Assembly (NCBI GenBank): GCA_049320885.1 | Contig: JBMORA010000063.1 | Span: 1 to 64,000, forward strand | Length of the DNA stretch: 64,000 nucleotides | Source: Thermodesulfobacteriota bacterium | Lineage (GTDB): Bacteria; Desulfobacterota; Desulfobacteria; Desulfobacterales; SURF-7 | Reading direction: 5' to 3' | Part shown: in pieces, positions 1 through 16,660 of the stretch | Numbering within the stretch: position 1 is the stretch's first letter | How the letters are laid out: each line of letters begins with the position of its first letter | The notes under the pieces: generated by a model | Told to the model about the DNA's origin: nothing | Seen by the model: only the letters and a program-made list of their open reading frames with translations | Databases searched by the model: none | Made by a program: the position numbers and the translations under genes

Positions 1-103
1 AGTTAGGTGTTTTTTGCGAAAAAACAGCGGCAGCCTTCTTCGATGCCATCATAAATACCGCGTTGCAGTGCCTTGGCTTGTCAAAGAACAAATTGGCGAT
101 CGC

Positions 104-175
104 TTAAATCGATCCCGAAAGTTGAGTTACAAGGAAATCGCGTTCGTCGTCGACGATGATGATCCGGTTGCTCAT
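104..175 (-). pseudogene. Truncated response regulator receiver-domain N-terminus
   Basis: Manual translation MSNRIIIVDDERDFL-VTQLSGSI*. It has the classic receiver beta1 plus DD acidic pocket, an AAGAAAGG RBS, and lies just downstream of a histidine kinase. Similarity stops at about position 130. Confidence 0.6.
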
Positions 176-270
176 TTCCCAGCCTTTCTTGCCTGAAATA
201 CGGATACGGTCTATCCGACGCGTTTGTTTTTTCCGATGGGACAAGCTTGCCTTTCCTGGTTCCTTCCGCC

Positions 271-3180
271 CTATCCCCGCTTTTTCTTCCTTCGTTCCAT
301 ATCGGGAATGATCACTCGAAACGCACTGAATTCTCCGGGTTTCGCCTCCACTTCAATGCGTCCCCCCAACCCCGCCACCAGGTTATGGCAAACGTAAAGT
401 CCCAATCCCGTTCCCTCCGTCATCGGCTTTGTGGAATAAAAAGGATCGAAAATTTTCGAGAGATTGTTTTCACTGATCCCGCAACCATTGTCCCGCACTT
501 CGATAATGGCATGATCCAGCCAGGTGCCACCGATGGAGGCGCTCAACCGTATCCAGGAATCCTCCTTGTCCATCGCCTGGGTCGCATTGATCAGGAGATT
601 GATGAGAATCTGTTCCAGGGCGATGGGGTCGGTATGGATCCGCGGGAAATTGTCCGGGATCTCCACCGAAAATGATTTTACCGTTTTCTTGACCTTGGCC
701 CGACAGATGGAAACGGCTTTTTCGGCCACCGCCGGCAGGTCAATCCAGTTCTGGTTGGTATTGAATTTGGTTCGGGAAAAATCCTTCAGATTGGAAACAA
801 AGGCATGGATTCTTTCCGAACCGTGTTGAATGTTGTCAATCAGCATCGATAAATCGTTGCGGAATTCCGCATACGGCATGTTGCATATTTCCAGTCCTGG
901 CTGAATACCGCCTTGTCTCTCGATCAGGCCGATCAATTGTTCTGCATATTCCTTCAAGATCGGGATATTAAATGCGATAAACGCATTGGGATTGTTGATT
1001 TCATGGGCCACACTGGAAACCAACACACCCAGGGAGGCCATTTTCTCATTCTGGATCAAACGTTTTTCGAACATTTTTTTTTCAGTGACATCGGTGATGC
1101 GGTAGATGATCTCCGCCGGTTCTCCCTTTGCGTTGCGCAGCGGATATAGAAAAACCTTTTCCTCCCGCCGGGGATCCCGAAAGCCTTTGCGTTCGAACTG
1201 GATATCCTCAGTGTTTGAAAACGCCGACGAAATCCTGCAGCCCCTGCACAGATTCGGGCTGCTTTTAAACGCCTGGTGGCAGAACTCACCGACACCCACC
1301 CGCGTTCCGGTCATGCCGAAATAATCGACGGCGCTCTTGTTCAGCAGTTTGACCCTCATCTCCCTGTCCAGCAACACCAGCGGATCCGAGATGCCGTCAA
1401 AAACCTTCTGCAGCATGTCCTTGCTTTCCAAAAGACGCGCTTCGGCTTCCTGACGTTCCTCGATCTCCCGCAAGAGCTGCTGATTGGAAAGGGTCAGTTC
1501 CCGGGTCCGCTCCCGTACCCGATTTTCCAGTTCATCATGAGCTTTTTTTCTTTTTTCCTCCATTTCCTTCAATTCGGTAATGAGATCGAATACAATGACA
1601 AAGTGATCGTGGACCGGACTGTATACGGAAACCGAAAACCAATTTTTCAGGGATTCGACGAACATTTCGAACCGCTCGGGATGACCGGTACGAACGACGC
1701 GGCCGTAAATTTCAAAAAGTCGCGGGTCGGTCTCCCGTATGCCCGGAATCACTTCCGTGACCTTTTTACCCACAACCCCCGTCAACCCGGTGAGGGTGCC
1801 AAAGGCCTCATTGACCGATAAAAAGATGAAGTCATGCGGTTTATCGTCTGCATACACCATCCGGCAATAGGCAAACCCGTCCAGCATGTTCTCGAACAAA
1901 ACGCGATACAATTTCTCGCTTTCCTGCAAGGCCTCCGCGGCGCGCTTGCGGTCGGTTATATCCTGGGTGATCCCGAATCCACCAAGCAATTCCCCTTTCC
2001 CGTCGAATTCAAGATAGGCCTTTTCCCGCACCCAGCGGACATCTCCATCCCGGAGGATGCGGTGCTCGATGTCGTAGGGATCGCCGCGCAGGCCCGCCTT
2101 CCACCGGGTATCCACATATTCGCGATCATCGGGATGAACCCGCTCCAGAAAGGATTCATAGGTCAGCCGCTGTTCCTTCGGCAAGTCGAAGATGCGGTGG
2201 TTTTCTTCGGACCAGGTCAGCACATTGTTCAGCACATCCAGCCGCCAGCTGCCGATTTCGCCGACTTCCTGGGCGCGGGCGAAATCCTTCCGGCTTTGTT
2301 CCAGTTCTTTCAGCAGCCGGTTGTGATCGGTTACATCCCAGGTCACCACCAGGACCGACGACTCCTCGCCGTCTCCGCCCGGCAGGCGGTCGATCTGGTG
2401 GTCCCAGGCGATATCCGGCTTTCCCGGAATCAGCGCATGATACCCTCTGCCTTCCATGGAAACGCCGGTTTCGAGAACAGTCCGCAGCAGCGCTTCGGAA
2501 CCAGCGGCAGCAGCCTCGGGAAAGACCTCGCGATATGTCCTTCCGATCATCGGCATCGTGGGCCGCAATGCCTGATACGCCCGGTTAACCAGTGTGTACC
2601 GGAAATCGCGTCCTTCCATCACGGCAATGCAGGCCTGCGCCTGGTTCAGCAGCATCTCGAGGAATCGACGCTGCCGGAACTGACGTCGCTCGCTCTCCCG
2701 CAACTCATTCTCGGTTTTTTTGCGCTCGGTGATGTCCAGGTTGAGACCGGCCCAATTGGTGATATCTCCGTTTTCGCCCATGACCGGCCTTCCAATTGCC
2801 AGCACATTGCGGAACGAGCCGTCCCTGGACTTGAAGCGATGTTCTCTCTCGAATTCCGCGCCCGACCGGACACATTCCATCCAATGGTTTTTCGTGGCCT
2901 CCACATCCTCCGGCGGCAATAAATGCAGCCAGCCGAAACGCTGCACCTGGTCCATGGTCATACCCACCATATCCAGAAATGACCGGCTGGCATAGGTGCA
3001 ATATCCTGCCGCATCCGTGACCCATACGCCGTATGGAATCGTCTCGCCGATGGTGCGATAGATCCGTTCGCTTCGTTCTCTTTCCCGGGCTGTTTTTTCG
3101 GCTTTTTGGCGCCCCAGTTCAGCCAGTTCCAGTTCCCGGACTCTTTTTTCCAACTCTTCGTATGATGGTTTTTCAGACAT
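271..3180 (-). CDS. Multi-PAS/PAC sensor histidine kinase (NtrB-like)
   Basis: Several PAS/PAC repeats, H-box VAHEINNP, N-box EQILINLLINA, DNGCG and GTGLGL boxes. Start placed at MSEKPSYEELEKRVRELE (3180) rather than the track start 3279. Confidence 0.95.
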   Translation of the reverse strand: MSEKPSYEELEKRVRELELAELGRQKAEKTARERERSERIYRTIGETIPYGVWVTDAAGYCTYASRSFLDMVGMTMDQVQRFGWLHLLPPEDVEATKNHWMECVRSGAEFEREHRFKSRDGSFRNVLAIGRPVMGENGDITNWAGLNLDITERKKTENELRESERRQFRQRRFLEMLLNQAQACIAVMEGRDFRYTLVNRAYQALRPTMPMIGRTYREVFPEAAAAGSEALLRTVLETGVSMEGRGYHALIPGKPDIAWDHQIDRLPGGDGEESSVLVVTWDVTDHNRLLKELEQSRKDFARAQEVGEIGSWRLDVLNNVLTWSEENHRIFDLPKEQRLTYESFLERVHPDDREYVDTRWKAGLRGDPYDIEHRILRDGDVRWVREKAYLEFDGKGELLGGFGITQDITDRKRAAEALQESEKLYRVLFENMLDGFAYCRMVYADDKPHDFIFLSVNEAFGTLTGLTGVVGKKVTEVIPGIRETDPRLFEIYGRVVRTGHPERFEMFVESLKNWFSVSVYSPVHDHFVIVFDLITELKEMEEKRKKAHDELENRVRERTRELTLSNQQLLREIEERQEAEARLLESKDMLQKVFDGISDPLVLLDREMRVKLLNKSAVDYFGMTGTRVGVGEFCHQAFKSSPNLCRGCRISSAFSNTEDIQFERKGFRDPRREEKVFLYPLRNAKGEPAEIIYRITDVTEKKMFEKRLIQNEKMASLGVLVSSVAHEINNPNAFIAFNIPILKEYAEQLIGLIERQGGIQPGLEICNMPYAEFRNDLSMLIDNIQHGSERIHAFVSNLKDFSRTKFNTNQNWIDLPAVAEKAVSICRAKVKKTVKSFSVEIPDNFPRIHTDPIALEQILINLLINATQAMDKEDSWIRLSASIGGTWLDHAIIEVRDNGCGISENNLSKIFDPFYSTKPMTEGTGLGLYVCHNLVAGLGGRIEVEAKPGEFSAFRVIIPDMERRKKKRG

Positions 3181-3596
3181 GCCGGCACCCGATGAAAAAG
3201 GATCACTTCCGGAAGGAGGTGAGCTGTCAGGACGTCTTCTTGCCGCATTTCGATGGCTTCTTTTTACCAATATCGCCATTCCATTGTCAATTTTTTTGGG
3301 AACCGACGCCGTTCACCACGGGTACAAGACCGACCGCTCTTGGCAAGAAAAAAATTCGATCCAACATGTATCCCAGATCGTCGGGTTTTAAGGGGGGACG
3401 AATGAAGGCGCTGAATACGGTACGGTGACCCGCAACAGCCATTGCATTTCATTTCATCATGCTTACGGTAAGGGGAAACAATATACCGTATCTCATTTTC
3501 AGATAATTCAGCGAATCTTGAAACGGGACAACTGGACTGCGTTCCCATGAAAGACGTTCCGGTTATTGGAGACCTCGTCCATATGGAGGTGACCTT

Positions 3597-4199
3597 ATGG
3601 CTTTCACACTTGAAAAACTACCGTATGCATATAATGCCCTGGAACCGTTCATCGATGCCAGGACAATGGAAATCCATCACACCAAACATCATCAGACCTA
3701 TATCGACAAACTGAATGCGGCCTTGGCCTCTCACCCGGAATTGCAATCCTTCCGGGCAGAGGAGTTAATCCGGACCCTTGACAAGATTCCGGACAATATC
3801 CGGACCGCCGTGAGAAATCATGGCGGCGGTCACGCCAACCATTCTTTCTTTTGGTCGATCTTGAAAAAGGAAACCGCCTTTAAGGGCGAAATCGCCGATG
3901 CCATATGCGCGGGATTTGGCGGTTATCAACAATTCAAGGAGTCGTTTTCCTCTGCGGCGACATCGCTTTTCGGCAGCGGCTGGACATGGCTGGTATCGGA
4001 TGGCGGCGTTCTGAAAATCATGACCACCCCCAATCAGGACAATCCCATCAGTCAGGGGAAATATCCCCTGATCGGCCTGGATGTCTGGGAACATGCCTAT
4101 TATCTCAAATATCAGAACAGGCGGCCTGAATACGTAGATGCGTTCTTCAACATCATCAACTGGGAAACGATCAACGATTATTATCGCGCGATCCGATAA
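3597..4199 (+). CDS. sodA: Superoxide dismutase, Fe/Mn family (Mn-type signature)
   Basis: [15 protein letters not shown] and DVWEHAYY motifs; GGAGG RBS. Confidence 0.95.
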
Positions 4200-4230
4200 T
4201 GATAGATCCTTGCCATGAAAGGATAGACCA

Positions 4231-4386
4231 ATGAACGATAATCGAAAAAAACAAGAAAATGTCAACAGTGAAGAAATGCAGGAAACGGCTGATGCCGGAT
4301 CTTGCGAGTGTTATGCCGAGGACGACGACACCGAGTACCGGGAACTCTGCTTCGATCCTGAAGAGGATTGTTGCTGCTGTTGCTGA
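4231..4386 (+). CDS. 51-aa acidic Cys-rich microprotein ending in CCCCC (not in ORF track)
   Basis: GAAAGGA RBS at 4217-4223. MNDNRKKQENVNSEEMQETADAGSCECYAEDDDTEYRELCFDPEEDCCCCC*: 8 Cys, 17 D/E. Cys codons alternate TGT/TGC. Confidence 0.7.
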   Translation: MNDNRKKQENVNSEEMQETADAGSCECYAEDDDTEYRELCFDPEEDCCCCC

Positions 4387-4449
4387 TCGATATGGGCCGG
4401 CTGGGATTATCGCGCCTGCCCGTCATGATAATCGAAGGAGGTGATCGAT

Positions 4450-4626
4450 ATGAAACGTTCCAAAATCCAACCGGATCATCATTGCTGTTCCATTGAAAAG
4501 AAGCAGCTGATGAAAGAATTGAAAGCGTGTGACGAAACATTCGCCGGGCATGAGGCGCATCACCAATGCTACCGGGAGGCTGCCAGGAGAAGCGGCCGCC
4601 GCGGCAAAGCGTGTATGTACTCATAG
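4450..4626 (+). CDS. 58-aa Cys/His-rich microprotein
   Basis: Strong RBS GAAGGAGGTG before ATG 4450. MKRSKIQPDHHCCS...KACDE...GHEAHHQCY...KACMYS: 5 Cys, 5 His. Confidence 0.75.
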   Translation: MKRSKIQPDHHCCSIEKKQLMKELKACDETFAGHEAHHQCYREAARRSGRRGKACMYS

Positions 4627-4808
4627 CCGTCGGTGGTAAAAAGCTATATCAGGCTGTCGGGAAGTGGCGCACGGAATCGTTGATATTTCGTGCGCCTGCC
4701 CGGAGTCTTGGAATACAAACATAGACTCGACTTTACTTCCTGCGACTATTATAGCGATACTGCAAACGCATTCGCGGTTTTATCGTAACAACTTATATTA
4801 TTTTGATA

Positions 4809-4955
4809 TCAAACTCCCGTATCGGACTGGCATTTTTCTTTACAGACGCGATATGCTTCGACACAACCGCTGAATTTACGGCTCGTGCATTCAAAAAACG
4901 CGTCATCGCATTTTGTTCGGCATTCTGGTTTCTGAAGGATTTGATCGTTTTTCAT
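4809..4955 (-). CDS. 48-aa six-cysteine microprotein, CX3CX6C-X7-CX6CX3C (not in ORF track)
   Basis: Strong RBS GGGAGGTGA 5 nt before ATG. MKNDQILQKPECRTKCDDAFFECTSRKFSGCVEAYRVCKEKCQSDTGV*; the Cys spacing is mirror-symmetric. Confidence 0.75.
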   Translation of the reverse strand: MKNDQILQKPECRTKCDDAFFECTSRKFSGCVEAYRVCKEKCQSDTGV

Positions 4956-5134
4956 TAGAATCACCTCCCTTTCTGCTGGCTCAGGTTTTCGTTACCATCT
5001 TTCCTCCTTCTACAGGCGAATATAGGCATCCTCAACCGATGGGCAAGTTTTGAATTGCTTTTCAACAAGCAAAATTTGGCGGATTTGCATGCCATTGGCG
5101 ATTATTGAATTGGGAGTTTTGGCGATGCTGCCCG

Positions 5135-5320
5135 GAAGCGATCCGGCTTGACCCGCGCCAGCGGACCTTTTATATCAACCTGGGAGAAATCCTGCGGAAT
5201 CAGGGAAAGCGGCAGGAAGCGATAGCCAATTACGAGCAGGCCCTGCGGCTCATACCCAATGACCGGGAAATTATCAGCCGGTTGCAGGAGCTGCGGATTT
5301 CGCCGGTTTCCTCACGGTAG
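5135..5320 (+). pseudogene. C-terminal fragment of a TPR protein
   Basis: EAIRLDP...FYINLGEILRNQGKRQEAIANYEQALRLIPND is a TPR consensus. There is no credible start or RBS upstream. Confidence 0.55.
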
Positions 5321-5378
5321 GCATCCGAAATGCGGTTATGACGGCAAGCAACCATCGGCCCTCTTGCTCATCGGGCTA

Positions 5379-6146
5379 CTATTCATAACGGTCTTCCGGT
5401 TTTTCATTTTCGGTCTTGTCATTCGGCTCTATCCGAATCGTCACCCGCCGGTTTTTGGCCCTTGCCTCATTGGTGTCATTCGGGCCCACCGGCCGCTGGT
5501 CGGCATAGCCGACGGCCATGAGCCGGCCGGGAGCCACCCCGTTTTCAATGAACAGTCTCACCACGCTGCTGGCCCTGGCCGATGACAGTTCCCAATTGGA
5601 TGGATAAACAGTGGAGCTGATGGGAATATTGTCGGTGTGACCCTCCACCATCACCATATCGGGAACCGTCGCCACCACGTAGGCCACTGCCTTCAACACC
5701 TCCACCGGCTTTTCTCCCAATTCGGCCTGTCCCGGCTGAAACAAAACGCCGGCATTGATTTCCACGCAGACACCCAAGCGGCTTTGGGTCACCGTTACCT
5801 GACCTTCCTGTATCAAGGGTTCCATCACCTTGAGGATATCGTTGGCGATTCCCCGCATTTTTTCTTCCTGGGCCGGATCACCCTGATCCGACGGCACTTG
5901 CACGGCGACCACGGGGATCCCGGTCGTCACGGTTTGATCTGCGGATTGAATGGACACCGGCTGGCCGGGAGTACTTTGAAACGCCTCGATGAGGGCCGCG
6001 CTCAATGTTTTGTATTTTCCCTCGTTCACGGAGGAAATGGCGTACATGACCACAAAGAAAGCAAACAGGAGGGTAATGAAATCGGCATAGGAAACCAGCC
6101 AGCGTTCATGGTTCTCATGCTCTTCGGGTTTTTTCCGGCGCATCAT
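5379..6146 (-). CDS. motB: Flagellar stator protein MotB/MotD
   Basis: ERWLVSYADFITLL (proton-binding Asp) plus OmpA-like domain EGHTDN...NWELSSARA...NRRV. Start at MMRRKK. Confidence 0.93.
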   Translation of the reverse strand: MMRRKKPEEHENHERWLVSYADFITLLFAFFVVMYAISSVNEGKYKTLSAALIEAFQSTPGQPVSIQSADQTVTTGIPVVAVQVPSDQGDPAQEEKMRGIANDILKVMEPLIQEGQVTVTQSRLGVCVEINAGVLFQPGQAELGEKPVEVLKAVAYVVATVPDMVMVEGHTDNIPISSTVYPSNWELSSARASSVVRLFIENGVAPGRLMAVGYADQRPVGPNDTNEARAKNRRVTIRIEPNDKTENEKPEDRYE

Positions 6147-6229
6147 CCAGGTTCTCCGTCCCGGCGAAGCGGAAAAGTCGAAAGCAACCTTCCGCCATGG
6201 TGGCTGCATTCGACGGCCCGCCGGCTGAT

Positions 6230-6985
6230 TTACGCGATATAGGCCTGCAATCTGGTTTCGATGTTCCGCGGATTTTCACCATTGGCAATGGCGCACAACC
6301 CCTCGATCATCATCTCCCGAATGGTCACCTGCCGGGCGATGATATTCTTCAATTTGTTGGCCATGGGGAGGAATACCAGGTTCGCCGATCCGACGCCGTA
6401 TATCGTGGCGACAAAGGCCACGGCAATACCGCCGCCCAATTTGGACGGGTCGGACAGATTTTCCATCACGTGAATCAGGCCCATCACGGCGCCCAGGATG
6501 CCGATGGTGGGGGCATAGCCTCCCGCCCCCTCCCATACCTTGGCCGCCTGGCGTTGATATTCTTCATAACTGCTGATTTCGGTTTCCAGTTCCTCGCGGA
6601 TTTTTTGGGGCTCGAACCCGTCCACCAGCATCTGCAGGCCCTTGCGTTGAAACGGATCACCCAGCCTTTCGATGGCCGGCTCCAGCCCGAGGATTCCGAC
6701 CTTGCGGGAAGTCTGGCTCCAGTCGACCACCTCGCGTATCAGTGCATGCGGATCCTCATGGGGCGGCATGAACACCCATTTGATCAAGCGCAATCCTTGC
6801 ATAAAAGCCGGCGATGTGGTTTGCAGCATGATGGCGCCCATGGTGCCGCCGATGACGATAAAAAAGGCGGTCAATTGCATCAACGATTGGGCCTTGCCGC
6901 CCTCGAGGATCTGGCCGCCCAATATGGCGCCGACGGCCACCGCCAAGCCCACGATGCTGATAAAATCGATTCGATTGCGTTTCAT
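6230..6985 (-). CDS. motA: Flagellar stator protein MotA/MotC
   Basis: Four TM segments, GILGLE, YAPTIGILGAVMGLI, VAFVATIYG, GENPR. Confidence 0.93.
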   Translation of the reverse strand: MKRNRIDFISIVGLAVAVGAILGGQILEGGKAQSLMQLTAFFIVIGGTMGAIMLQTTSPAFMQGLRLIKWVFMPPHEDPHALIREVVDWSQTSRKVGILGLEPAIERLGDPFQRKGLQMLVDGFEPQKIREELETEISSYEEYQRQAAKVWEGAGGYAPTIGILGAVMGLIHVMENLSDPSKLGGGIAVAFVATIYGVGSANLVFLPMANKLKNIIARQVTIREMMIEGLCAIANGENPRNIETRLQAYIA

Positions 6986-7091
6986 TTGATTGTTGGTTCT
7001 TCCGGTGGTTGCACGATTTGTTCACTATAAAATAGATGGGGAAAAATTACAAAAGAATAAAGCGGAGCCGGTTGCATGGAGCGGCCATCGA

Positions 7092-7937
7092 CTACCGCTT
7101 GTCTCGTGACGTCACTTCTCCCGGCAGGGCCTTCAGCGGTCCGGATGAAAAGGCCTTTGCGCTCCCGAACTCCGTGAGATGGCGGATGCGTTCGGCAACC
7201 TCCGGATGAGACGTAAAATACTGGCCGAAAAGTTCCGGGTCCTCGGCTTCCCGGATTTTTTCAAAAAAAACGGTGGCGCCCCCCATATGCCCGTAGAAAC
7301 AATTCACGGCCGACAAGGCGAATTCATCCGCCCGCGTCTCCTGAATCCGGGAGAATCCCATTTCGGTGATGCCGATTGACCGGGCCAGGAATTCGCCGGC
7401 AGTGCTGTCAGAGCCGAAAACCAGCGCCGTCAGGGCCATGAAGGCCAAACCTCGACCCATGGCTCGCAGGTGATCCCGATGCTGAAAATGTCCAAGTTCA
7501 TGCGATAATACAAAGGCCAACTCATTTTCAGAGGACATTTTTTCCAGCAGCCCGGAGAAAACGACGACGGTGCCGCCGGGAAGCGCCACGGCATTGACCG
7601 TTTCATTTTCGGTGACAACCACCCGGATGTCATAGGGCAGGGCCGCGCAGCGCGCCCTCAGTCCATCCGCCAGCGCCTGGAGATATTTCGCCCGACTGGT
7701 GGTCTTTTCCGCCGTATCCGCCAGTTGGGAAAAAAAACCGGCGATCCGCCGTTCCGTCTCCATGGACATGCGTGGTACGAGAAAATCCACCAGGAGTCCG
7801 AGACCGATGTAGAGCGCCAGGATCCCGCCCAGCAGACCGCCCAGCAGGATGCCGAGTTCCTTCATCGGCGATTCGGGCGACAGGTTGTCATTCCTTCCGG
7901 GCAACTTGGGCGTATACGGTACCGGGTTCATGGTCAT
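7092..7937 (-). CDS. M48 family zinc metallopeptidase
   Basis: NAVALPGG, HELGH, ETRAD and SHP motifs; N-terminal TM. Confidence 0.92.
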   Translation of the reverse strand: MTMNPVPYTPKLPGRNDNLSPESPMKELGILLGGLLGGILALYIGLGLLVDFLVPRMSMETERRIAGFFSQLADTAEKTTSRAKYLQALADGLRARCAALPYDIRVVVTENETVNAVALPGGTVVVFSGLLEKMSSENELAFVLSHELGHFQHRDHLRAMGRGLAFMALTALVFGSDSTAGEFLARSIGITEMGFSRIQETRADEFALSAVNCFYGHMGGATVFFEKIREAEDPELFGQYFTSHPEVAERIRHLTEFGSAKAFSSGPLKALPGEVTSRDKR

Positions 7938-7946
7938 CCATGCGCA

Positions 7947-8393
7947 TTACTGGAGAGTCAGGGCCGTACCATAGGCCAGCACCTCGACACAGGTGGATTT
8001 TTGCTTGCGGCCGCTCTGCCCGATGGTGGAAGTCTCAAGCCGGACATTTACGATGATGGCGGCGTCTCCCGCCGCTTCTTTCATTCGCAGGATCGCCTCC
8101 CTCCGGGCTCTGTCGATCAGGCTTTCATAGGATCGCACATTGCCGCCGAAAATATTGCGCAACCCCGCCAGAAACTGCTTGAAATAGTCGACGGCGATCA
8201 CGGCGCTGCCCGAAACGAGCTCAGCCTTCCGCACGGCGCTTTCATCGATCACCGTTTTCCAGAACGTCACGGCCGGCATTCGCAAAAAGGCCTGCTCGCG
8301 CGCTTCAATGGATTTATAATGCTTCCGCTCCGCCATGGTGCCGGCTGTGTAACCGACGGCCATCAGAATCAGAAAAATAATCAGCTGTTCCAT
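7947..8393 (-). CDS. YbjQ/UPF0145-family protein with N-terminal TM
   Basis: GLRNIFGGNVRSYESLIDRARREAILRM...YGTA. Confidence 0.88.
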   Translation of the reverse strand: MEQLIIFLILMAVGYTAGTMAERKHYKSIEAREQAFLRMPAVTFWKTVIDESAVRKAELVSGSAVIAVDYFKQFLAGLRNIFGGNVRSYESLIDRARREAILRMKEAAGDAAIIVNVRLETSTIGQSGRKQKSTCVEVLAYGTALTLQ

Positions 8394-8402
8394 TCCGCCT
8401 CC

Positions 8403-8975
8403 TTATTCAACCCGCACGGCGGTGCCGTAGGCGTATAATTCGGCCGCGCCCTGGGCAACGGAGGAAGTGGAAAACCGCACATTGACGACGGCGTTGGCGC
8501 CGAGTTGACGGGCCTGGCTGACCATGCGCTCCACCGCCTGCTCGCGGGACTCCTTCAGCAGCTCCGTGTACCCTTTCAATTCACCGCCGATGAGATTTTT
8601 CAGGGATGCCATGATATCGCGGCCCACATGCTTGGCGCGGATGGTGCTGCCGGAAACCAGGCCGAAATGTTCCACAATGGTCGCGCCGGGAATGGTTTCC
8701 ACATTGGTCAGGATCATACCGTCCGCCGGAATGTCTGTGCGCCGTTTCATTTCGATCAACCGGCAGACGGCGCCGGCTTTTTTGAATGCCAGTTCGTATT
8801 TTTCCGCCGCGGCCTCATCGACGGCCGTCTTGATGACCACCGGCGCATCGGCGAACATCCGATCGATGGCTTCAGGGGGTTTCTTCAGTACCACCCCGAG
8901 ATCCTGTTTGACTTCCTCCATGGATTTATCGCCGGCCAGTTTGCCCTCAAATACAACCTTAAACGTCCTCGCCAT
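8403..8975 (-). CDS. YbjQ/UPF0145-family protein with extra N-terminal domain
   Basis: GLVSGSTIRAKHVGRDIMASLKNLIGGELKGYTELL...YGTAV. Start at MARTFKV with GAAAGGA RBS. Confidence 0.9.
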   Translation of the reverse strand: MARTFKVVFEGKLAGDKSMEEVKQDLGVVLKKPPEAIDRMFADAPVVIKTAVDEAAAEKYELAFKKAGAVCRLIEMKRRTDIPADGMILTNVETIPGATIVEHFGLVSGSTIRAKHVGRDIMASLKNLIGGELKGYTELLKESREQAVERMVSQARQLGANAVVNVRFSTSSVAQGAAELYAYGTAVRVE

Positions 8976-9059
8976 CTGCTGTTTCCTTTCTGGTTGGAAA
9001 TCCGCTTTGCATTTCACAGGATTTTCATGACTGCTCACACTGGTGTTTATTCCAGCCAC

Positions 9060-9704
9060 CTAATATCCTAGCTGCTGATTGACGATCACCACGGAAACAG
9101 CGGTCATCATGGGTTTGCGATGCAATATCGTCGTGATATTGCAAATCCGCTGGGGGGAATTGCAATCGATGCAGATGCCGGTTTCCGCGCAGGGGGTTTT
9201 CATGCCGAGACTTCTGGCCCGCATGGGCGCCGCCACCTGCCGGACCCTTTTGATGGCGCTGTCCAGGTCGGGGGTCACCTTGTTGATGCCCGCCACGATG
9301 ATGACCTTCCCCGGACCGAAGGCCATGGCGCTGGTGCGGTTGCCCACGCCGTCCACGTTGACGATTTCACCGGTCATGGCAACGGCGTTGGCGCTGCACA
9401 GAAAACAATCGCAGGATAGTTGACGGCGGCGGCATTCCAGGCTTTCCGTCAGGTTGAACCCACCGGCATTGTGGTCGTACAGAATCTTGCCGCGCTCTTT
9501 AAGTGCCTCCATCAGGCCCAGGGAGCGGGTGGTGTCGGACCCGCCGAAACCGACGGTTGCGCAATCCGCTGCAACCCCCAGAATCACTTCCAGGGCGCCT
9601 TGCCGATCCTCGGCCCAATGAGCGTCAAAACCATGCTTGTTGAGATTCCGGATACAGGTTTCACCGATTTTTTGCCCTAGCCAGGTATGATATGGTTTGG
9701 TCAC
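9060..9704 (-). CDS. LUD-domain (YkgG/LutC-like) protein
   Basis: SANAVAMTGEIVNVDGVGNR, GINKV and CAETGICIDCNSPQRIC. GTG start with GGAGG RBS. Confidence 0.88.
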   Translation of the reverse strand: MTKPYHTWLGQKIGETCIRNLNKHGFDAHWAEDRQGALEVILGVAADCATVGFGGSDTTRSLGLMEALKERGKILYDHNAGGFNLTESLECRRRQLSCDCFLCSANAVAMTGEIVNVDGVGNRTSAMAFGPGKVIIVAGINKVTPDLDSAIKRVRQVAAPMRARSLGMKTPCAETGICIDCNSPQRICNITTILHRKPMMTAVSVVIVNQQLGY

Positions 9705-9759
9705 TGCACACCTCCCGCGGCTGGAAATCACCAGTCCGGCTCTGGCAGGGGATTCCCGC

Positions 9760-10470
9760 TCACTGTTTCAAGAAATATAAAACCAGGCTTTTTCCCAGGA
9801 TCGGATTGAACAGTCTGTCCAGAAAACGGGTCAAAAAAGGTTTTTGCATGATATCCCAGGTAAGAAACCGGTGATACAGGTTGACCGGCCAGGAATCCTT
9901 TCTGCCCGGCCCCACCAGACATTTCAGCCACCAGTAGGGGGAATGAAGGCTATGGGCGTAATGGGTTTCGAAATGACGAACCCCCCCGGCTTCCAATCGT
10001 TGGATCAATTCCCTTTTATCGTAGATGCGGACATGGCCCTGGTTGGCATTGAAATAGTCATCGGACAAGGCCCAGCAGATCCGCTCCGGCAAATACCGGG
10101 GGACACTGACCACCAGCGGCTTCCGGGGCTTCAGAACCCGGATGATCTCCCGCATGGCGGCCCGGTCGTCGGGAATGTGTTCCAGCACCTCGGAGCAAAT
10201 CACCAGATCAAAGCTTTCGTTCTTGAATGGCAGCTGCCGGATATCCGCCGACGAAAGGCACCAGACCCCGCCGCCGTGCTCGGCAAGCGCGTCATGATAG
10301 CACAACCGGTTCCGGGCTTCCTCGAGATCGCTGAAATTCCGGTCCGCCCCCACCACCACGGCGTCCTTCAGACGGTATGCCTCACAGGTGTGGCGTCCCG
10401 GCCCGCAGCCGATATCCAGAATCCGGGCTCCCGGCTCCACCTGGACCCGCTTGAAATCAACGGTGATCAT
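9760..10470 (-). CDS. Class I SAM-dependent methyltransferase
   Basis: LDIGCGPG motif I; LPF..ESFDLVICSEVLEH. Confidence 0.9.
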   Translation of the reverse strand: MITVDFKRVQVEPGARILDIGCGPGRHTCEAYRLKDAVVVGADRNFSDLEEARNRLCYHDALAEHGGGVWCLSSADIRQLPFKNESFDLVICSEVLEHIPDDRAAMREIIRVLKPRKPLVVSVPRYLPERICWALSDDYFNANQGHVRIYDKRELIQRLEAGGVRHFETHYAHSLHSPYWWLKCLVGPGRKDSWPVNLYHRFLTWDIMQKPFLTRFLDRLFNPILGKSLVLYFLKQ

Positions 10471-11707
10471 GGATCACCTCGTTGTACGCCGCAATGGTCT
10501 TTTCCGCCGCCCGCCTCCAGGTGAAATTTTCCTGCACCCGGCGGTACCCGAGCGCACCCAGCTCGGCGGCGCGCTCCGGATTGTCCAGCAGGGAAACGAT
10601 GGCCCCTGCCAGAGCGTCTTCATTGGCCGGCGGCACCAGAATCCCCGCATCCCCGACCACTTCCGGCAGGGCTCCTCCCGTGGTGCTGATGACCGGCACA
10701 CCGCAGGCCATGGCCTCGCCGGCGGGAAGCCCGAACCCCTCGTAGACCGAGGGCACCACGGCCATGGTGGCGCGGGCGTATTGCCGGACGAATTCCTGGT
10801 CATCGATTCTGCCGGTGAAGCGGACATGGTCCTCAATGCCGAGCCGTCCCACCAGCTTGAGGATGCCGCCGTCCGGTTTGGGTGTTCCCACCACGATCAG
10901 ACGGATGGAACGGATCTTTGCCACCCGGGCAACCGCCTTGAGGAGATAATAAAGACCCTTGAGGGGCGTGTCCGCACTGTTGGTGACGATAATACGGTTT
11001 TTGGCCCGTTCGATCTCCGGGATGGGATAAAAAATATCCGTATCGACGCCGTTGGGAACGATCCGGAACCGGTCCCGGGGAACATTGAAATCCCGGCAGA
11101 TATCCTCCCGGGCGCATTCGGATACCGTTATAATGCTTGACAGTTTGCGGGCGACCCGCTTCTGCATGCCGATGAACGAGTGCCACCGCAAATGCTTCAA
11201 TTTCTTCCACGGCGAGCGAACACTGCGGATGGCAATATCCCGGTCCACCGTGATGGGGTGGTGGATGGTGGCGATGGTGGGCACGTATTGACCGATGAAC
11301 CAGATTCCATAGGACAAACTTTGGTTGTCATGAATGATATCGAACTCTTGAAACCGGTGGCGCAGGTAGCGCATAGCCCGCATGCCGAAGGTCAACGGCT
11401 CCGGAAAGCCCATGGTGGCTACTCCCAGCCATTCCAAAAAATTCACGGGGTCGGCAAGCTCCGGCAGGGTCGGTATGCGAAACAGATCCGCTGGATTGTA
11501 CAGATCCAGGCATGGCAGCATGGTCAGCTTGACATTCTGGTCCAGCAGCGGATCCGGCGGCCCGGCGATGACCTCCACGGAATGCCCGAGCCGGCTGAGC
11601 TCCCGGCTCAGATTGCGGATGTACACGCCCTGCCCGCCGCAGTGAGGGTTGCTCCGATAACTGATCAGACCGATCCGGAGCCGCCTGTTTGTCAATGGTG
11701 CCTTCAT
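10457..11707 (-). CDS. Glycosyltransferase family 4 (GT-B)
   Basis: GGQGVY, KG, and EGFGLPAGEAMACG motifs. Confidence 0.93.
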   Translation of the reverse strand: MKAPLTNRRLRIGLISYRSNPHCGGQGVYIRNLSRELSRLGHSVEVIAGPPDPLLDQNVKLTMLPCLDLYNPADLFRIPTLPELADPVNFLEWLGVATMGFPEPLTFGMRAMRYLRHRFQEFDIIHDNQSLSYGIWFIGQYVPTIATIHHPITVDRDIAIRSVRSPWKKLKHLRWHSFIGMQKRVARKLSSIITVSECAREDICRDFNVPRDRFRIVPNGVDTDIFYPIPEIERAKNRIIVTNSADTPLKGLYYLLKAVARVAKIRSIRLIVVGTPKPDGGILKLVGRLGIEDHVRFTGRIDDQEFVRQYARATMAVVPSVYEGFGLPAGEAMACGVPVISTTGGALPEVVGDAGILVPPANEDALAGAIVSLLDNPERAAELGALGYRRVQENFTWRRAAEKTIAAYNEVIHDHR

Positions 11708-11876
11708 CCGCGCATGCCTTTCTGAACGCCATGGAAAAGTCCACTCTTACGCCAGCCGCATCCGGCGTAATCCACATTCGAGCGTTTTCATTAACGCCCG
11801 TCCATGAATTTCGTCAAGTGTTTTTTCCGGCCATGCCGCCTGCGGTAACCCGCAGGTCGGGTTGGCCGGCGGTTAC

Positions 11877-11929
11877 CCGACTGAACGCTTGCTCAAAATT
11901 GTTGACAAATCCGAGAAATTGCTTAATCT
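11877..11929 (+). promoter_or_regulatory. Operator (11877-11901) abutting a sigma70-like promoter of the por operon
   Basis: CCGACTGAACGCTTGCTCAAAATTG is followed directly by TTGACA (11902-11907) and TAATCT. It is 23/25 identical to the reverse complement of 21658-21682. Confidence 0.7.
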
Positions 11930-12005
11930 AACCATTTATGCCTTTTCCCGGAGTCGTTGAGGTCCCGGTGAAGCAACCGGCCCGGTCGCATGGCGCGGCG
12001 GGCTG

Positions 12006-12620
12006 ATGAAAAAAACAGATTTGAATATAAGCGGTTACATGATGAAAAACCAAATTATTGAAATCAGATGGCACGGCCGGGGAGGCCAGGGTGCGATCAC
12101 CGCCGCCAAAATCGTCGCCAATGCGGCCTTTGGATCGGGGTACAGCGGTGTTGTCATGGCCCCAACCTTCGGGACGGAACGGCGGGGGGCACCGGTTTTC
12201 ACCTCCCTGAAAATATCCAAACAGAAAATCTACGACCTGTCCCCCATCGAACAGCCGGACATGATCGTCGTCCTGGACCACCTTCTCCTGGAGGAGGCCG
12301 CCATCGTAAGGGGCTTGAAACCCGGCGGACTGATCATTCTCAATACACCCAAACCACCGGAGGCCTATAATTTCCCGGGAATGAAAATTGCCACGGCCGA
12401 CGTCACCTCCCTTGCCGTCTTGGTGGGCCTCAAACCCGGCATCGTCAATACGGGAATCATTGGCGCCTTTGCCAAAGCCAGCGACCTGGTGGATATGGGA
12501 ATGCTTACCCAGGCCATCAAGGAGGAATTTCACACTCGGAAACCGAACCGGAATGCCCAGGCGGCCCGTCTGGTATATGAAAAAACCGTCATCGGCAGTT
12601 CATTGGAGGTCCGCCCATGA
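12006..12620 (+). CDS. porC: 2-oxoacid:ferredoxin oxidoreductase gamma subunit
   Basis: EIRWHGRGGQGAITAA and FGTERRGAPV. The real start may be 12039 or 12042. Confidence 0.92.
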   Translation: MKKTDLNISGYMMKNQIIEIRWHGRGGQGAITAAKIVANAAFGSGYSGVVMAPTFGTERRGAPVFTSLKISKQKIYDLSPIEQPDMIVVLDHLLLEEAAIVRGLKPGGLIILNTPKPPEAYNFPGMKIATADVTSLAVLVGLKPGIVNTGIIGAFAKASDLVDMGMLTQAIKEEFHTRKPNRNAQAARLVYEKTVIGSSLEVRP

Positions 12621-12922
12621 GTGATCCCACTTACGCCTGCAGAAAATCCCATAGCGAACCCGGACCGGGTGATGCCGGAAAGACCGGATCCTGGCGAGTG
12701 CTGCGTCCGATCATTGATGTCACTGTCTGCATTCCGGCCAAAACCAACAAGATGGCCTGTTTCAATTGCTGGTTGTACTGTCCGGACGGCGTCATCACCC
12801 GCACCATTCCACCTACGATCAATTACGACTATTGCAAAGGCTGCGAAATCTGCGCGGAAGAATGCCCGGTGGACGCCATCCGGATGGTGGAGGAAACCAA
12901 ACTGATCAACGAGGAGAAGTAA
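12617..12922 (+). CDS. porD: 2-oxoacid:ferredoxin oxidoreductase delta subunit (2x4Fe-4S)
   Basis: KTGSWR..RP, CFNCWLYCPD and YCKGCEICAEECP. Confidence 0.92.
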   Translation: MSDPTYACRKSHSEPGPGDAGKTGSWRVLRPIIDVTVCIPAKTNKMACFNCWLYCPDGVITRTIPPTINYDYCKGCEICAEECPVDAIRMVEETKLINEEK

Positions 12923-12926
12923 TCCC

Positions 12927-14120
12927 ATGCATATTATCGAATCGGGAAACGTCGCAGCCGCGAACGGCGTCAAACTGGCCCGGGCCCAGGTAATCGCCGC
13001 CTATCCCATCACGCCCCAGACACCGCTGACTGAAAAACTCTCTGAGTTCGTGGACGCCGGAGAAATGCAGGCCCAATACATCCCGGTGGAAAGCGAACAC
13101 AGCGCCCTGGCGGTCTGTATCGCGGCCTCCAGCGCGGGCGCCAGGGCGTTTACGGCCACGAGCGCCAACGGCCTGCTATATATGGTGGAACAAATTCACT
13201 GGGCCGCCGGAGCGCGCCTGCCCATCGTCATGTGCGTGGTGAATCGCGGCATCGGGGCGCCCTGGACTGTCTGGAACGATCACCAGGACTCCATCTCCCA
13301 GCGCGACGCCGGCTGGATTCAATTGTATGCCTGTGACCATCAGCAGATCATCGACACGGTGATTCAGGCCTTCCTGCTGGCGGAAACGGTCAGCATCCCG
13401 GTGATGGTCTGCTACGACGGCTATCTGCTTTCCCATACCTACATGCCCTTCGATGTTCCGGATACTGAAAAAGTGGATGCCTTCCTGCCGCCATTCCAGC
13501 CGGCATACTACCTGGATCCCGGGAACCCGGCCAACCTCAATACCGTGACCCTGCCGGACATCCGTCCGGATGTGCGCGGCAATATGGCGCCGGGTTACAT
13601 GGAAATCCGTCACAACCTGCATACCGATCTCCGGCGCGCCATGGATAAAATCGCGGAAATCGACGCCCGCTTTCTGAAGCTGTTCGGACGGGGAGGGAAC
13701 CCCTTTGTCGAAGCCTACCGCAGCGATGACGCCGATTTCATTGCCGTCTGTCTCGGGTCCCTGGCCTACCAGCTGAGGGATGTGGTGGATCAGCTGCGGG
13801 AGGAAGGCGTAAAGGCGGGTGTCGTGGGCATTCGCCTGTACCGTCCCTTCCCGGATCAGGCCGTGATCGAAGCGCTGTCAAAAGCCAGAAGCATCATCGT
13901 CTTTGAAAAGGCGCTGAGCTACGGCAACGAGGGCGCCCTCTTCGCCGATATCAAGGCGGCCCTCTATCACAGCCCGCGCAAACCTTCCGCATCCAACTAC
14001 ATCCTGGGACTCGGCGGGCGCGAAATCAGAACGGTGGATCTGCTGAAAACTTTCCGTGAGGCCTGCGCCCTGAACGGCCCGGAAGCCGGAACGCCCAAAT
14101 GGATCGGGCTGAAGCTTTAG
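12927..14120 (+). CDS. porA: 2-oxoacid:ferredoxin oxidoreductase alpha subunit
   Basis: AAYPITPQT, ESEHSA, TATSANGL, RLYRPFP, GLGGR. Confidence 0.93.
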   Translation: MHIIESGNVAAANGVKLARAQVIAAYPITPQTPLTEKLSEFVDAGEMQAQYIPVESEHSALAVCIAASSAGARAFTATSANGLLYMVEQIHWAAGARLPIVMCVVNRGIGAPWTVWNDHQDSISQRDAGWIQLYACDHQQIIDTVIQAFLLAETVSIPVMVCYDGYLLSHTYMPFDVPDTEKVDAFLPPFQPAYYLDPGNPANLNTVTLPDIRPDVRGNMAPGYMEIRHNLHTDLRRAMDKIAEIDARFLKLFGRGGNPFVEAYRSDDADFIAVCLGSLAYQLRDVVDQLREEGVKAGVVGIRLYRPFPDQAVIEALSKARSIIVFEKALSYGNEGALFADIKAALYHSPRKPSASNYILGLGGREIRTVDLLKTFREACALNGPEAGTPKWIGLKL

Positions 14121-14167
14121 AAACAAAATCAATTCATCGCCGGGTTGTCCGGTAAAGGAATACGATC

Positions 14168-15088
14168 ATGAGCGCCAACACGACCATCCTCAGTCTCCCG
14201 GAAGAAGAACTGGTCCATCCGGGCAACCGCGCCTGCGCAGGGTGCGGACTCAGCATTTTATACCGCGTCGGTCTGAAAGCCCTCGGCCGCAACACCATCC
14301 TGGTGGTTCCGCCAAGCTGCCTAACGGTGCTGCAGGGTCTGTATCCCATCGCCGCGACCCAGCTGCCCTGCCTGAACGTCACCTTCGCATCCACGGGCGC
14401 CGCCACCACGGGAATCATCGGCGCCCTGAAAGCCCAGGGCCGCACGGATATCACCGTTGCCGCCTGGGCCGGCGACGGGGGCACCGCCGACATCGGCATC
14501 CAGTCCCTTTCCGGAGCCTGCGAGCGGGGGGAAAACTTCATTTTCATCTGTTATGACAACGAAGCCTATATGAATACAGGCGTACAACGGTCCGGCACGA
14601 CTCCCCAGGGGGTGATCACCACCACCACGCCCATCAGCGGCAAAGCCCAGCAAAAAAAGGATGTGCCGGCCATCATGGCCGCCCATCATCTCAACTATGT
14701 GGCCACGGGCAGCGCCGCCTATCCATTGGATCTGTATGACAAGATCGTCAAGGCCAAAACCGTTTCAGGCCCCAAATACATCCACTTGCAAACCCCCTGC
14801 CCGGCCGGCTGGGGTTTCGATCCCCGCTACACGGTCAAAATCGGCCGTCTGGCCATCGAAACCGGTCTGTTCGATCTCTACGAAATCGATCACGGCGTCT
14901 TCCGGCTGACCGCCGCGTCCCTGAAACTGCTGGGGAAAAAACGCAGACCCGTCTCCGAGTATTTTGAAACCCAGACCCGTTTCCGGGCTCTTTCCGAGGA
15001 GCAGATCACCGCCGTCCAGCGGCAGACGGACGAAAAATGGGCGGAATACGAACGGACACTCGCGGATGCGGGGAAAAGCGAAAAGTAA
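14168..15088 (+). CDS. porB: 2-oxoacid:ferredoxin oxidoreductase beta subunit (TPP-binding)
   Basis: ACAGCG, GDGG...YDNEAYMNTG and PCPAGW. Confidence 0.93.
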   Translation: MSANTTILSLPEEELVHPGNRACAGCGLSILYRVGLKALGRNTILVVPPSCLTVLQGLYPIAATQLPCLNVTFASTGAATTGIIGALKAQGRTDITVAAWAGDGGTADIGIQSLSGACERGENFIFICYDNEAYMNTGVQRSGTTPQGVITTTTPISGKAQQKKDVPAIMAAHHLNYVATGSAAYPLDLYDKIVKAKTVSGPKYIHLQTPCPAGWGFDPRYTVKIGRLAIETGLFDLYEIDHGVFRLTAASLKLLGKKRRPVSEYFETQTRFRALSEEQITAVQRQTDEKWAEYERTLADAGKSEK

Positions 15089-15114
15089 TCAGTAGTCAGA
15101 AGCCAGAATCCAGG
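15087..15114 (+). repeat. Degenerate 7-bp tandem repeat, 4 copies
   Basis: AATCAGT AGTCAGA AGCCAGA ATCCAGG at the porB stop. Confidence 0.5.
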
Positions 15115-15143
15115 AAACGGAAGACGTCATCATACCCCCATCG

Positions 15144-15172
15144 AAGCCGGAGGCATTAAAAGCCTCCGGCTT
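15144..15172. terminator. Hairpin between the convergent por and liu operons
   Basis: Perfect 11-bp stem AAGCCGGAGGC / GCCTCCGGCTT with a 7-nt loop; a T-run follows on the + strand. Confidence 0.75.
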
Positions 15173-15178
15173 GGATTT

Positions 15179-15937
15179 TTAGGCGGTTTCCAGCCCCAGG
15201 GTGAACCGCCAGGCGCAAACCCATTCCGCCGGATGATCATCCGGCGGACAGCCGATGCATTCGGTCCGGATCCGCGGATCGATGGCCCGGGCGAAATACG
15301 TATACTCCACCAGACCGCCGGATTTGCAGGGGTAGTCGTCCAGGTTCTTCCGCCTGCGGGCGGATTGGACGCGGCATTCATTCATCTGAAACACCAACCG
15401 GTCGGATGCCTCTTCGATAAAGGACTGGGTGTTGACCCGGGCGTACAGACGGAACTGGAGGGCCTGCTTCAAACCGGCAAGCCCCGGCCGCGCCGGTAAG
15501 TCCAGAAACCGGCGGATGGACCAGGCTTCGAAGGGGGAAAAATGGGCCCAGCAAGAATCATTGCAGCGCTTGGCGTCGGTCATGCCGTTCTCGAATTCCA
15601 CCGCCTGAAACCAGACGCCGTCATTGGCCAGCCAATTGTTGGCCATGCCGTCCAGCAGTTTCAGGAGGTTTTCCCTGCCCAACTCCAGCAAGGGCGCCGG
15701 CAATTCGCCGGTCATCTCGAATCCCAGGATTTTTGCAAGCCGCTGGAGCTGGATGGGCCAGCTGCGCCGGGATGCCGCACCCAGGGCTTCGAGAGCCCGC
15801 TCCATCCCCATCTGGTGACGGACCTCGGCAAACCAGAGCCCGTAATGCATGATGATGCGGTGCCCCATATCCATCACTAGACGGGCCAGCTCGACTTCTT
15901 CCAGGTCATCGATCCGTTTGACGGCTTGCCCCTTCAT
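15179..15937 (-). CDS. Conserved protein, probably DUF6125 family
   Basis: Duplicated motif HYGLWFAEV / WLANDGVWFQAVE and C-terminal CRVQ..R...PCK...CIGCPPD..CAW. The family name is from recall. Confidence 0.7.
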   Translation of the reverse strand: MKGQAVKRIDDLEEVELARLVMDMGHRIIMHYGLWFAEVRHQMGMERALEALGAASRRSWPIQLQRLAKILGFEMTGELPAPLLELGRENLLKLLDGMANNWLANDGVWFQAVEFENGMTDAKRCNDSCWAHFSPFEAWSIRRFLDLPARPGLAGLKQALQFRLYARVNTQSFIEEASDRLVFQMNECRVQSARRRKNLDDYPCKSGGLVEYTYFARAIDPRIRTECIGCPPDDHPAEWVCAWRFTLGLETA

Positions 15938-15942
15938 CCCGC

Positions 15943-15981
15943 TTCTCCCATTCTACCATTCTACCATTCTACCGCTCTACC
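15943..15981. repeat. 8-bp tandem repeat (TTCTACCA) in about 5 copies
   Basis: TTCTCCCA TTCTACCA TTCTACCA TTCTACCG CTCTACC fills the intergenic gap. Confidence 0.8.
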
Positions 15982-16615: not shown

Positions 16616-16660
16616 GGAGACTCCTTGTAATCCCTCTTCTAAGCCATTGACCCTGGAAAA

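Follow-up and report, generated by a model that had tools for sequence, protein, structure and literature searches.

The window, by which we mean the whole stretch of 64,000 nucleotides that was analysed, holds near one end a superoxide dismutase (SOD) gene followed by three small cysteine-rich open reading frames, here termed ORF1, ORF2 and ORF3 (Table 1). As the initial annotation had reported, these encode 51, 58 and 48 residues with 8, 5 and 6 cysteines behind sod, and together they span 756 bp; the gaps of 31 bp between sod and ORF1 and 63 bp between ORF1 and ORF2 are likewise confirmed. The three had been described as a single cluster, which they form, but that description left out that ORF3 lies on the minus strand and converges on ORF2, with 182 bp between the two stops, and ORF3 therefore cannot share the sod transcript. 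A clear Shine-Dalgarno (SD) sequence had been assigned to each; those of ORF2 (AAGGAGGTGA) and ORF3 (GGGAGGTGA) are strong but that of ORF1 (AAAGGA) is weaker. Two of the ORFs had been said to escape a 60-residue cutoff; all three are under 60 aa from their SD-supported ATG, with ORF2 reaching 61 aa only when an upstream GTG is used. Only 27 comparable ORFs (ATG start, 38-70 aa, at least five Cys, SD match of at least five bases) are present in the whole 5.6-Mb genome, and three of them are inside the 756-bp cluster, which is more than chance would give.

Table 1. Features of the sod locus (positions in the window)
Feature	Coordinates	Strand	Description
SOD, cytoplasmic Fe/Mn, Mn-type signature (sodA-like)	3597..4199	+	200 aa; Pfam Sod_Fe_N and Sod_Fe_C
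ORF1	4231..4386	+	51 aa, 8 Cys; unnamed Cys-tail family, as a likely but divergent member
ORF2	4450..4626	+	58 aa, 5 Cys; predicted helical hairpin; unnamed family
ORF3	4809..4955 (start 4955, stop 4809)	-	48 aa, 6 Cys; predicted helical hairpin; unnamed family
Hairpin, 12-bp	4666..4696		Between converging ORF2 and ORF3; candidate shared terminator
Upstream ORF, five codons	4981..4998	-	Perfect AAGGAGG site; in ORF3 leader
Sigma-70-like site	5019..5046	-	9/12 match; upstream of ORF3; weak candidate promoter

The SOD carries GGG and NQD motifs, which we take to be the Mn-type signature, its best NCBIfam model is PRK10925 (SOD[Mn]; 258 bits, under the cut-off of 363), and its nearest relative is from Desulfatitalea. 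A second SOD in the same genome (C12:67124-67840), 41% identical to the first and with a twin-arginine-like N-terminal leader, has none of the peptide families adjoining it. On the other side of sod, across a gap of 317 bp, lies a divergent multi-PAS histidine kinase of 1002 aa (271-3279, minus strand). The single-TPR frame at 5105-5320 (plus strand, 71 aa from a TTG) is probably the remnant of a longer TPR gene. An Rfam scan of positions 3200-5500 returned no match. The statement that no RiPP maturase is nearby holds for the 64-kb window, from which both radical SAM and YcaO genes are absent; the nearest radical SAM gene on the same contig is at 190848, and YcaO genes are found on other contigs. 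Also upheld is the lack of a signal peptide, as no signal-peptide-like hydrophobic stretch appears in 47, 37 and 22 members of the ORF1, ORF2 and ORF3 families in a hydropathy scan (the best 11-residue value over residues 1-30 does not exceed 1.33).

The hairpin between the converging genes is more stable than any of 200 shuffles (z = -3.7 on the plus and -3.8 on the minus strand); the terminator scan did not call it and called no U-tract. Sigma-70-like sites in the region number four against 2.8 expected, which is not above chance. In a same-genus relative, too, a second SD-like site lies upstream of ORF3. Among 97 upstream regions of the families no Fur/PerR-like box was found, and four contain the palindrome CCAC-N3-GTGG. 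This palindrome stands about 85-110 bp upstream at loci L006, L009 and L010 (ORF2) and L070 and L072 (ORF1), and at L070 it falls, operator-like, inside the spacer of a near-consensus sigma-70 promoter. A sigma-54-like site, a pattern picked after looking at the upstream regions, precedes 7 of 43 ORF1 genes versus 3.4-4.3% of the genes of the window genome, and none is upstream of the window's sod or ORF3. Such sites with a TTG(T/A) -12 element precede ORF1 relatives or the SOD-led cluster at L028, L044, L060, L081, L108, L113, L120 and L125, and sigma-54 activator genes lie beside six loci (L081, L090, L092, L095, L120 and L125).

None of the three peptides, and none of their relatives to any meaningful degree, matches a Pfam or NCBIfam model. 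Searched as a single sequence, ORF2 finds matches in 17 of 61 related genomes (E <=0.1), with 12 of the 60 besides the window genome at E <0.001, ORF3 has three clear relatives among 60 genomes, and ORF1 has none among 60 related genomes. In a word search of 5.8 billion proteins ORF2 finds only itself and ORF3 nothing, and the best ESM Atlas scores (0.77-0.78) are to unnamed clusters and serve as leads only. Because single sequences recovered so little, profiles were needed to find relatives, and that of ORF1 was seeded with Cys-tail peptides that adjoin ORF2 relatives in eight genomes. The profiles identify ORF1, ORF2 and ORF3 relatives in 43, 47 and 22, respectively, of 301 genomes of the host order, likely the Desulfobacterales, counts that include the window genome, whose own sequence went into the models. 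The ORF2 profile yields 96 cluster representatives, two of which are long repeat proteins and probably chance matches, and the weakest ORF3 match is at about E 1e-4. Some copies decay: an ORF2 relative (L088:394-489, genome G169) is interrupted by a TAA, and an ORF3 relative (L102, genome G151) is split in two. The 233 database proteins matched by the ORF1 profile are all named merely hypothetical and come from Desulfosarcina ovata, Desulfobacterales, Desulfosalsimonadaceae and unnamed deltaproteobacteria; thus an ORF1 relative is carried by a cultured genus, Desulfosarcina. It is these names, along with Desulfatitalea as the source of the nearest SOD, that point to Desulfobacterales as the likely host order. 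In phylum-wide samples ORF2 is present in 3 of 301 genomes in all, one of them outside the host order, and ORF1 and ORF3 only in the window genome (1/221 each). Literature listings name no such families, and proteomic tables for cultured Desulfobacterales could carry ORF1-ORF3 as hypothetical proteins.

The initial annotation had proposed Cys conservation and dN/dS as checks, and both come out in favor of genes: the cysteines are kept and the families are under purifying selection, with median omega about 0.2 (ORF1 0.19, 40/66 pairs usable; ORF2 0.20, 15/34; ORF3 0.18, 13/13), by a crude count on pairs of at least 60% identity, a choice of similar pairs that biases omega downward. Substitutions in the family pairs concentrate at third codon positions, and an SD match of at least five bases precedes 41/47 ORF1, 33/37 ORF2 and 18/24 ORF3 entries. 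Four metatranscriptomes, selected together with this stretch, were also aligned to the window. Two studies have contigs over ORF1 (4233-4430 and 4246-4396), one has a contig over ORF3 (4726-4968) and one has a contig over the start of sod, all with 1-3 differences from the window. Over window positions 1-20000, at 97% likeness, five contigs of at least 150 bases fit over their full length, and these are the two over ORF1, the one over ORF3, the sod start and one in the neighboring kinase gene. A diverged ORF3 relative in the RNA has 15 of its 19 listed changes at third codon positions. No contig in the four metatranscriptomes bridges sod and ORF1; for runs X2 and X5 no near-identical sod contig is listed and most of the 20-kb control stretch is uncovered; missing cover proves nothing. 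These contigs, which carry neither strand nor level and to which DNA may contribute, are consistent with transcription in the environment. ORF1, ORF2 and ORF3 are real genes that represent three conserved, unnamed, order-restricted families, ORF1 as a divergent, likely member, and the suggestion that they are undescribed thiol microproteins is borne out.

The ORF1 peptide has a net charge of -13 and cysteines at positions 25, 27, 40 and 47-51. Family members (median 50 aa and 9 Cys, with His rare at 0.5 per chain) combine a variable, charged N-terminus, in which the alignment reveals no conserved motif, with a C-terminal Cys block that has a conserved C, D-x-C and CC, and this tail is metallothionein-like and probably disordered. 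In most members a Cys-Tyr-Val-Asp-Pro-Cys unit is repeated one to four times, and a smaller subtype, which includes the window copy, is without it. Identity between the window ORF1 and its closest relatives is only ~29%. A subtype model built without it, with bias correction off, scores it at 35.6 bits, above all 500 Cys-preserving shuffles, and it receives 5 bits from a bias-corrected model of members that do not adjoin ORF2. Like other members it adjoins ORF2 and SOD, which together with the near-identical RNA contigs argues that it is real and likely a divergent family member. Selenocysteine read-through was considered for ORF1 and rejected, as the stop codons of 47 members are mixed (TAA 23, TGA 19, TAG 5) and no SECIS-type hairpin is supported downstream (z = -0.6).

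A different architecture is predicted for ORF2 and ORF3. ORF2, with a net charge of +6 and cysteines at 12, 13, 27, 40 and 55, is predicted to form helices at 8-30 and 34-57 (pLDDT 81), and ORF3, with the pattern Cx3Cx6Cx7Cx6Cx3C, at 8-26 and 31-44 (pLDDT 75). Of 96 distinct ORF2 sequences, C12 is retained in 95, C27 in 96, C40 in 96 and C55 in 94, with C13 present in 69; several non-Cys residues are also conserved (K17 in 59, Y41 in 68, S48 in 80, G49 in 69 and R51 in 83). Around the predicted turn, the ORF2 positions sum to 67 for both C12+C55 and C27+C40, and the ORF3 pairs 12/42, 16/38 and 23/31 each sum to 54; such constant sums are the signature of cysteines that face each other across a hairpin, placing the conserved cysteines of both predicted hairpins in exact cross-helix register. 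The ORF3 pattern, as Cx3Cx6Cx7or9Cx6Cx3C, is retained in 20 of 22 members, and in one relative both cysteines of the inner pair are gone together. For ORF2 C12/C55, the 96 sequences show three single losses and no paired loss. Since there is no signal peptide and the cytoplasm is presumably reducing, the ORF2 and ORF3 pairs would be mostly thiols or metal ligands, with disulfides forming under oxidation. A zinc site in ORF2 (C27-x2-C30...H38-x-C40) was considered and is not supported, as covariation of C30 and H38 is absent (p = 0.40). The ORF2 and ORF3 profiles are unrelated to each other (probability 0.7%). A PDB profile search returned nothing significant for ORF2 (Jug r 2 at E 9.4), and for ORF3 it gave NF-YB/HapC rows (best E 0.006) that seem to be fortuitous matches between helices. 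Foldseek matches for both are at E 2.6 or worse and are generic hairpins, the best VIA fold-search hits (Z 7.1 and 6.5) are generic helices, and an ORF3 homodimer prediction scored 0.00, which is evidence neither way.

The peptides had been presented as a module attached to sodA, which is not supported. Only in the window genome is SOD within 2.5 kb of ORF2 (1 of 38 genomes) or of ORF3 (1 of 19). In a same-genus genome (G001) an 83% identical SOD belongs to an Hcp-SOD-Hsp20-Lon cluster that includes none of the peptides, and ORF3 is at another location. In a species-genome scan, 80 loci of SOD relatives gave no peptide-family match at any, on 5 of 64 parts covered, with most loci outside the host order and some short-flanked. 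The proposed synteny with sod does extend beyond the window in the case of ORF1, which has SOD within 2.5 kb in 4 of 29 genomes of four families (0.05 expected), three of them additional to that of the window; the adjoining SODs in all four families share the Mn-type motifs, and ORF1 is directly upstream twice. Hence the SOD arrangement is local, partly repeated for ORF1, and not a fixed SOD operon. The peptide families also pair with each other. Of the 23 genomes with both ORF1 and ORF2, 10 have the two within 3 kb of each other, and ORF3 joins them in three genomes of three families, namely the window genome, G169, with its stop inside ORF2, and G193. Eight of the ten ORF2-linked ORF1 genes, besides that of the window, are profile seeds found by adjacency, and an ORF1 model built without such seeds recovers 7 of the 10 genomes.

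Aconitase is a commoner partner than SOD for the peptide families. At a distance of up to 2.5 kb, an aconitase of the TIGR01342/PRK07229 type accompanies ORF1 in 7 of 18 genomes, ORF2 in 6 of 18, and one or the other in 10 of 27 genomes from seven families (0.08 expected); in one genome ORF1, SOD and aconitase are consecutive on one strand. The window genome has no TIGR01342 aconitase. Among 275 neighboring ORFs scanned (picked by coding score among 298 candidates, with a few more chosen by eye), rubrerythrin, MsrAB, thioredoxin, DCC1 and pyridine nucleotide-disulfide reductase recur, as do WrbA-like flavodoxin, Usp, Hsp20, Hsp90, Lon and DUF1328. ORF3 is beside rubrerythrin, MsrAB, thioredoxin or DCC1 at 5 of 21 other loci versus roughly 1% expected, an expectation taken from the gene counts of the window genome for a category picked after the neighbors were seen, and the five cases come from three families only, three of them from one; kin are not independent. 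Relatives sit beside oxygen-stress genes, an iron-sulfur aconitase included, more often than beside SOD itself. The oxygen-stress setting suggested initially is borne out in that rubrerythrin, MsrAB and thioredoxin recur, but most peptide loci have no recognizable stress gene within 1.5-2.5 kb.

Several unnamed proteins accompany the peptides. A fourth family (~62 aa), which contains CxxxC and ends in a conserved RNDPPG...GGRV, adjoins ORF1, ORF2 or ORF3 relatives in nine genomes (L088:2327-2512, plus strand, and L028, L030, L044, L081, L096, L098, L099, L120 and L125), has a further copy in the window genome (G000 C51:6450-6632) and has no Pfam or NCBIfam match. A protein of ~440 aa adjoins ORF2 relatives in seven genomes and is also in the G001 SOD cluster (L124:4224-5555, minus strand, and L003, L006, L009, L010, L046, L050 and L051); it has an N-terminal helix-turn-helix by eye, no family match and no copy in the window genome, and it is a candidate regulator or partner. 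Other small unnamed proteins, several of them Cys-rich, are at L124:9098-9355, L124:3819-4016, L078:1123-1353, L034:1169-1345, L044:2113-2280 and L142:3702-3851, and at L142 a 50-aa, 5-Cys ORF is convergent on a SOD gene.

We propose that ORF1, ORF2 and ORF3 belong to a shuffled stress-gene kit of cytoplasmic, thiol- and metal-buffering microproteins, a reading drawn from their anatomy and neighbors that we consider to have an even chance of being correct. They would be separately mobile genes that recur beside oxygen-stress genes, with ORF1 binding metal ions via its metallothionein-like Cys tail, and with the facing Cys pairs of ORF2 and ORF3 holding metal when reduced and closing into disulfides when oxidized. 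Such genes may be co-regulated with SOD, aconitase, rubrerythrin, MsrAB, thioredoxin, Usp and Hsp20 and induced by oxygen exposure or starvation. At the present locus ORF1 and ORF2 would have ended up downstream of a Mn-type SOD, probably on a common transcript, with ORF3 presumably transcribed on its own, toward ORF1 and ORF2. Aconitases lose their cluster to superoxide. The likely benefit would be to absorb oxidant together with the loose Fe, Zn and Cu shed by damaged metalloproteins, the buffering being placed beside enzymes that remove superoxide or are harmed by it. The nearest working model is the Pseudomonas metallothionein described in PMC7387436, and the same paper argues against the proposal in that its knockout pointed to no part in metal resistance or oxidative stress. 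Also against it are the many loci without a stress gene, the presence of SOD beside ORF2 and ORF3 only here, and the window ORF1 itself, with its ~29% identity, its lack of single-sequence relatives and its 5 bits. The conserved residues K17, Y41, S48, G49 and R51 of ORF2 argue against a plain buffer, which would need none, and the single but never paired losses of C12 and C55 likewise speak against the proposal.

Those same residues, together with the two invariant in-register Cys pairs, fit a role for ORF2, and perhaps ORF3, as a redox switch that operates like CP12, whose oxidized form would bind aconitase, the ~440-aa protein or ORF1. The first two are recurrent neighbors of ORF2 (6/18 and seven genomes), ORF1 is acidic and ORF2 basic, and CP12 itself is described in this way in PMC9406205. 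However, ORF2 lacks the CP12 motif, the window genome has ORF2 but neither a TIGR01342 aconitase nor the ~440-aa protein, and the order and orientation of the partners differ among loci, so that we regard such a switch as rather unlikely. Distinctly less probable in our estimation is that ORF1 stores and returns iron, Fe-S clusters or sulfane sulfur in the repair of aconitase and other Fe-S enzymes. Its placement beside aconitase (7/18) and SOD (4/29), including the one-strand row of all three, points this way, as does the subtype to which the window copy belongs, which is beside SOD or aconitase at 5 of 11 loci versus 6 of 38 for the other subtype, but that difference is not significant (p = 0.09), no Isc/Suf gene is present among the 275 neighboring ORFs, and a varying number of Cys repeats is more in keeping with a buffer than with one fixed site for a cluster. 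A reading in which a strongly expressed Desulfobacterales kit guards Fe-S enzymes, with ORF1 as a new metallothionein-like reservoir of iron, metal or sulfane sulfur and ORF2 and ORF3 as cytoplasmic, CP12-like disulfide-hairpin switches that bind aconitase-type enzymes on the entry of oxygen and shield them or turn them off, is one to which we give fairly low credence.

Detoxification of heavy metals (Cu, Hg, Cd) unrelated to oxygen stress would suit the poly-Cys tail of ORF1 and the heavy-metal ATPase or HMA genes that adjoin ORF1 in two genomes, both from one family, as well as the ZIP transporter beside one ORF2. Nevertheless, metal-transport genes number about three in all among the 275 neighboring ORFs, and no ArsR/SmtB-type sensor is present among these or in the window flanks, which makes such a function very unlikely. 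The layout of ORF1 also resembles a RiPP precursor, with a charged leader and a Cys-rich core of varying repeat number that would be modified in trans, and radical SAM genes occur near three ORF1 loci and number 67 in the window genome; yet a conserved maturase, protease or exporter is absent from the ORF1 loci scanned, the window has none, and the N-terminal part has no conserved motif, so we consider this exceedingly improbable. Hardly more credible is that these are real genes of unrelated function, small and strongly translated, that pile up in plastic regions. Each family is mostly found without the others and without SOD, and several further unnamed small families share the same regions, but against this stand the recurrent pairing of the peptides among themselves and with a single kind of aconitase in seven families, and the sigma-54-like sites upstream of 7 of 43 ORF1 genes.

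Accounts of how sulfate reducers in sediments, rice roots and wetlands survive oxygen usually center on SOD, rubrerythrin and oxygen reductases. The three conserved, unnamed and soluble thiol proteins, mostly shorter than 60 aa and present in ~7-16% of the sampled genomes of the order, represent a layer that annotation pipelines miss, with ORF1 as a candidate new type of bacterial metallothionein and ORF2 and ORF3 as candidate bacterial disulfide-hairpin redox proteins. A kit that guards Fe-S enzymes, if true, would mean CP12-like logic in an anaerobe, surfacing in soil, root and sediment RNA.

Among known systems, ORF1 is most like the metallothioneins SmtA/BmtA and PmtA/PflQ2, which are also small, without a signal peptide and in the range of 8-10 Cys. 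SmtA and PmtA are tabulated at 55-79 aa and 8-10 Cys in PMC8636135, which also reports PmtA as possibly protective; the ORF1 medians are within this range in Cys and just under it in length. According to PMC7387436, the Pseudomonas metallothionein lacks a metal regulator, responds to stationary phase by induction and helps cells to survive over the long term, and like ORF1 it has no adjoining metal sensor and has neighbors of unknown function. In contrast, none of 37 ORF1 members matches PF02069, nor does anything in the window genome, with a Synechococcus control positive. The ORF1 cysteines are packed as CCC...YxDxC...CC at the C-terminus with His rare, the family is confined to one order in the samples searched, and its loci (window flanks and 275 neighbors) are without the ArsR/SmtB sensor of an SmtA-type operon.

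ORF2 and ORF3 resemble CP12 in being small, charged and cytoplasmic, with two or three Cys pairs and a possible oxidation-folded helical hairpin. CP12 is described, in PMC9406205, as loose when reduced and disulfide-folded and target-binding when oxidized, as a weak binder of Cu and Ni, and as marked by an AWD_VEEL core and a C-terminal CxxxPxxxxC pair. Neither marker is in the ORF2 or ORF3 alignments, no CP12 Pfam match is found in 99 ORF2 and 22 ORF3 members, the pairs are nested across the predicted hairpin and not local, and there is no GAPDH or PRK linkage. A Foldseek match to CBS-CP12 is not significant (E 5.5). The plant alpha-hairpinins or vicilin-buried peptides and the mitochondrial twin-CX3C and twin-CX9C proteins share with the predicted ORF2 and ORF3 structures two antiparallel helices whose cysteines are in register. 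ORF3 bears CX3C at both ends, and in fold ORF2 most resembles walnut Jug r 2 (rmsd 1.0 over 35 columns, E 2.8). Alpha-hairpinins and twin-CXnC proteins are eukaryotic and of oxidizing compartments, the sequence and fold scores are not significant, and a common hairpin is no sign of kinship. The Csp copper storage proteins have Cys-lined four-helix bundles with Cys at i, i+4 and i+11, a spacing repeated in the predicted helices of ORF3, which look like half such a bundle (Foldseek row 6ek9, weak at E 9.2). ORF3 differs, with just six Cys on two predicted helices; none of 22 members matches Pfam, and no copper genes are beside it. By the tests that could be run, the three families fall outside BmtA, CP12, Csp, RiPP clusters and selenoproteins, and it is in function, we infer, that they are like metallothioneins and disulfide hairpins.
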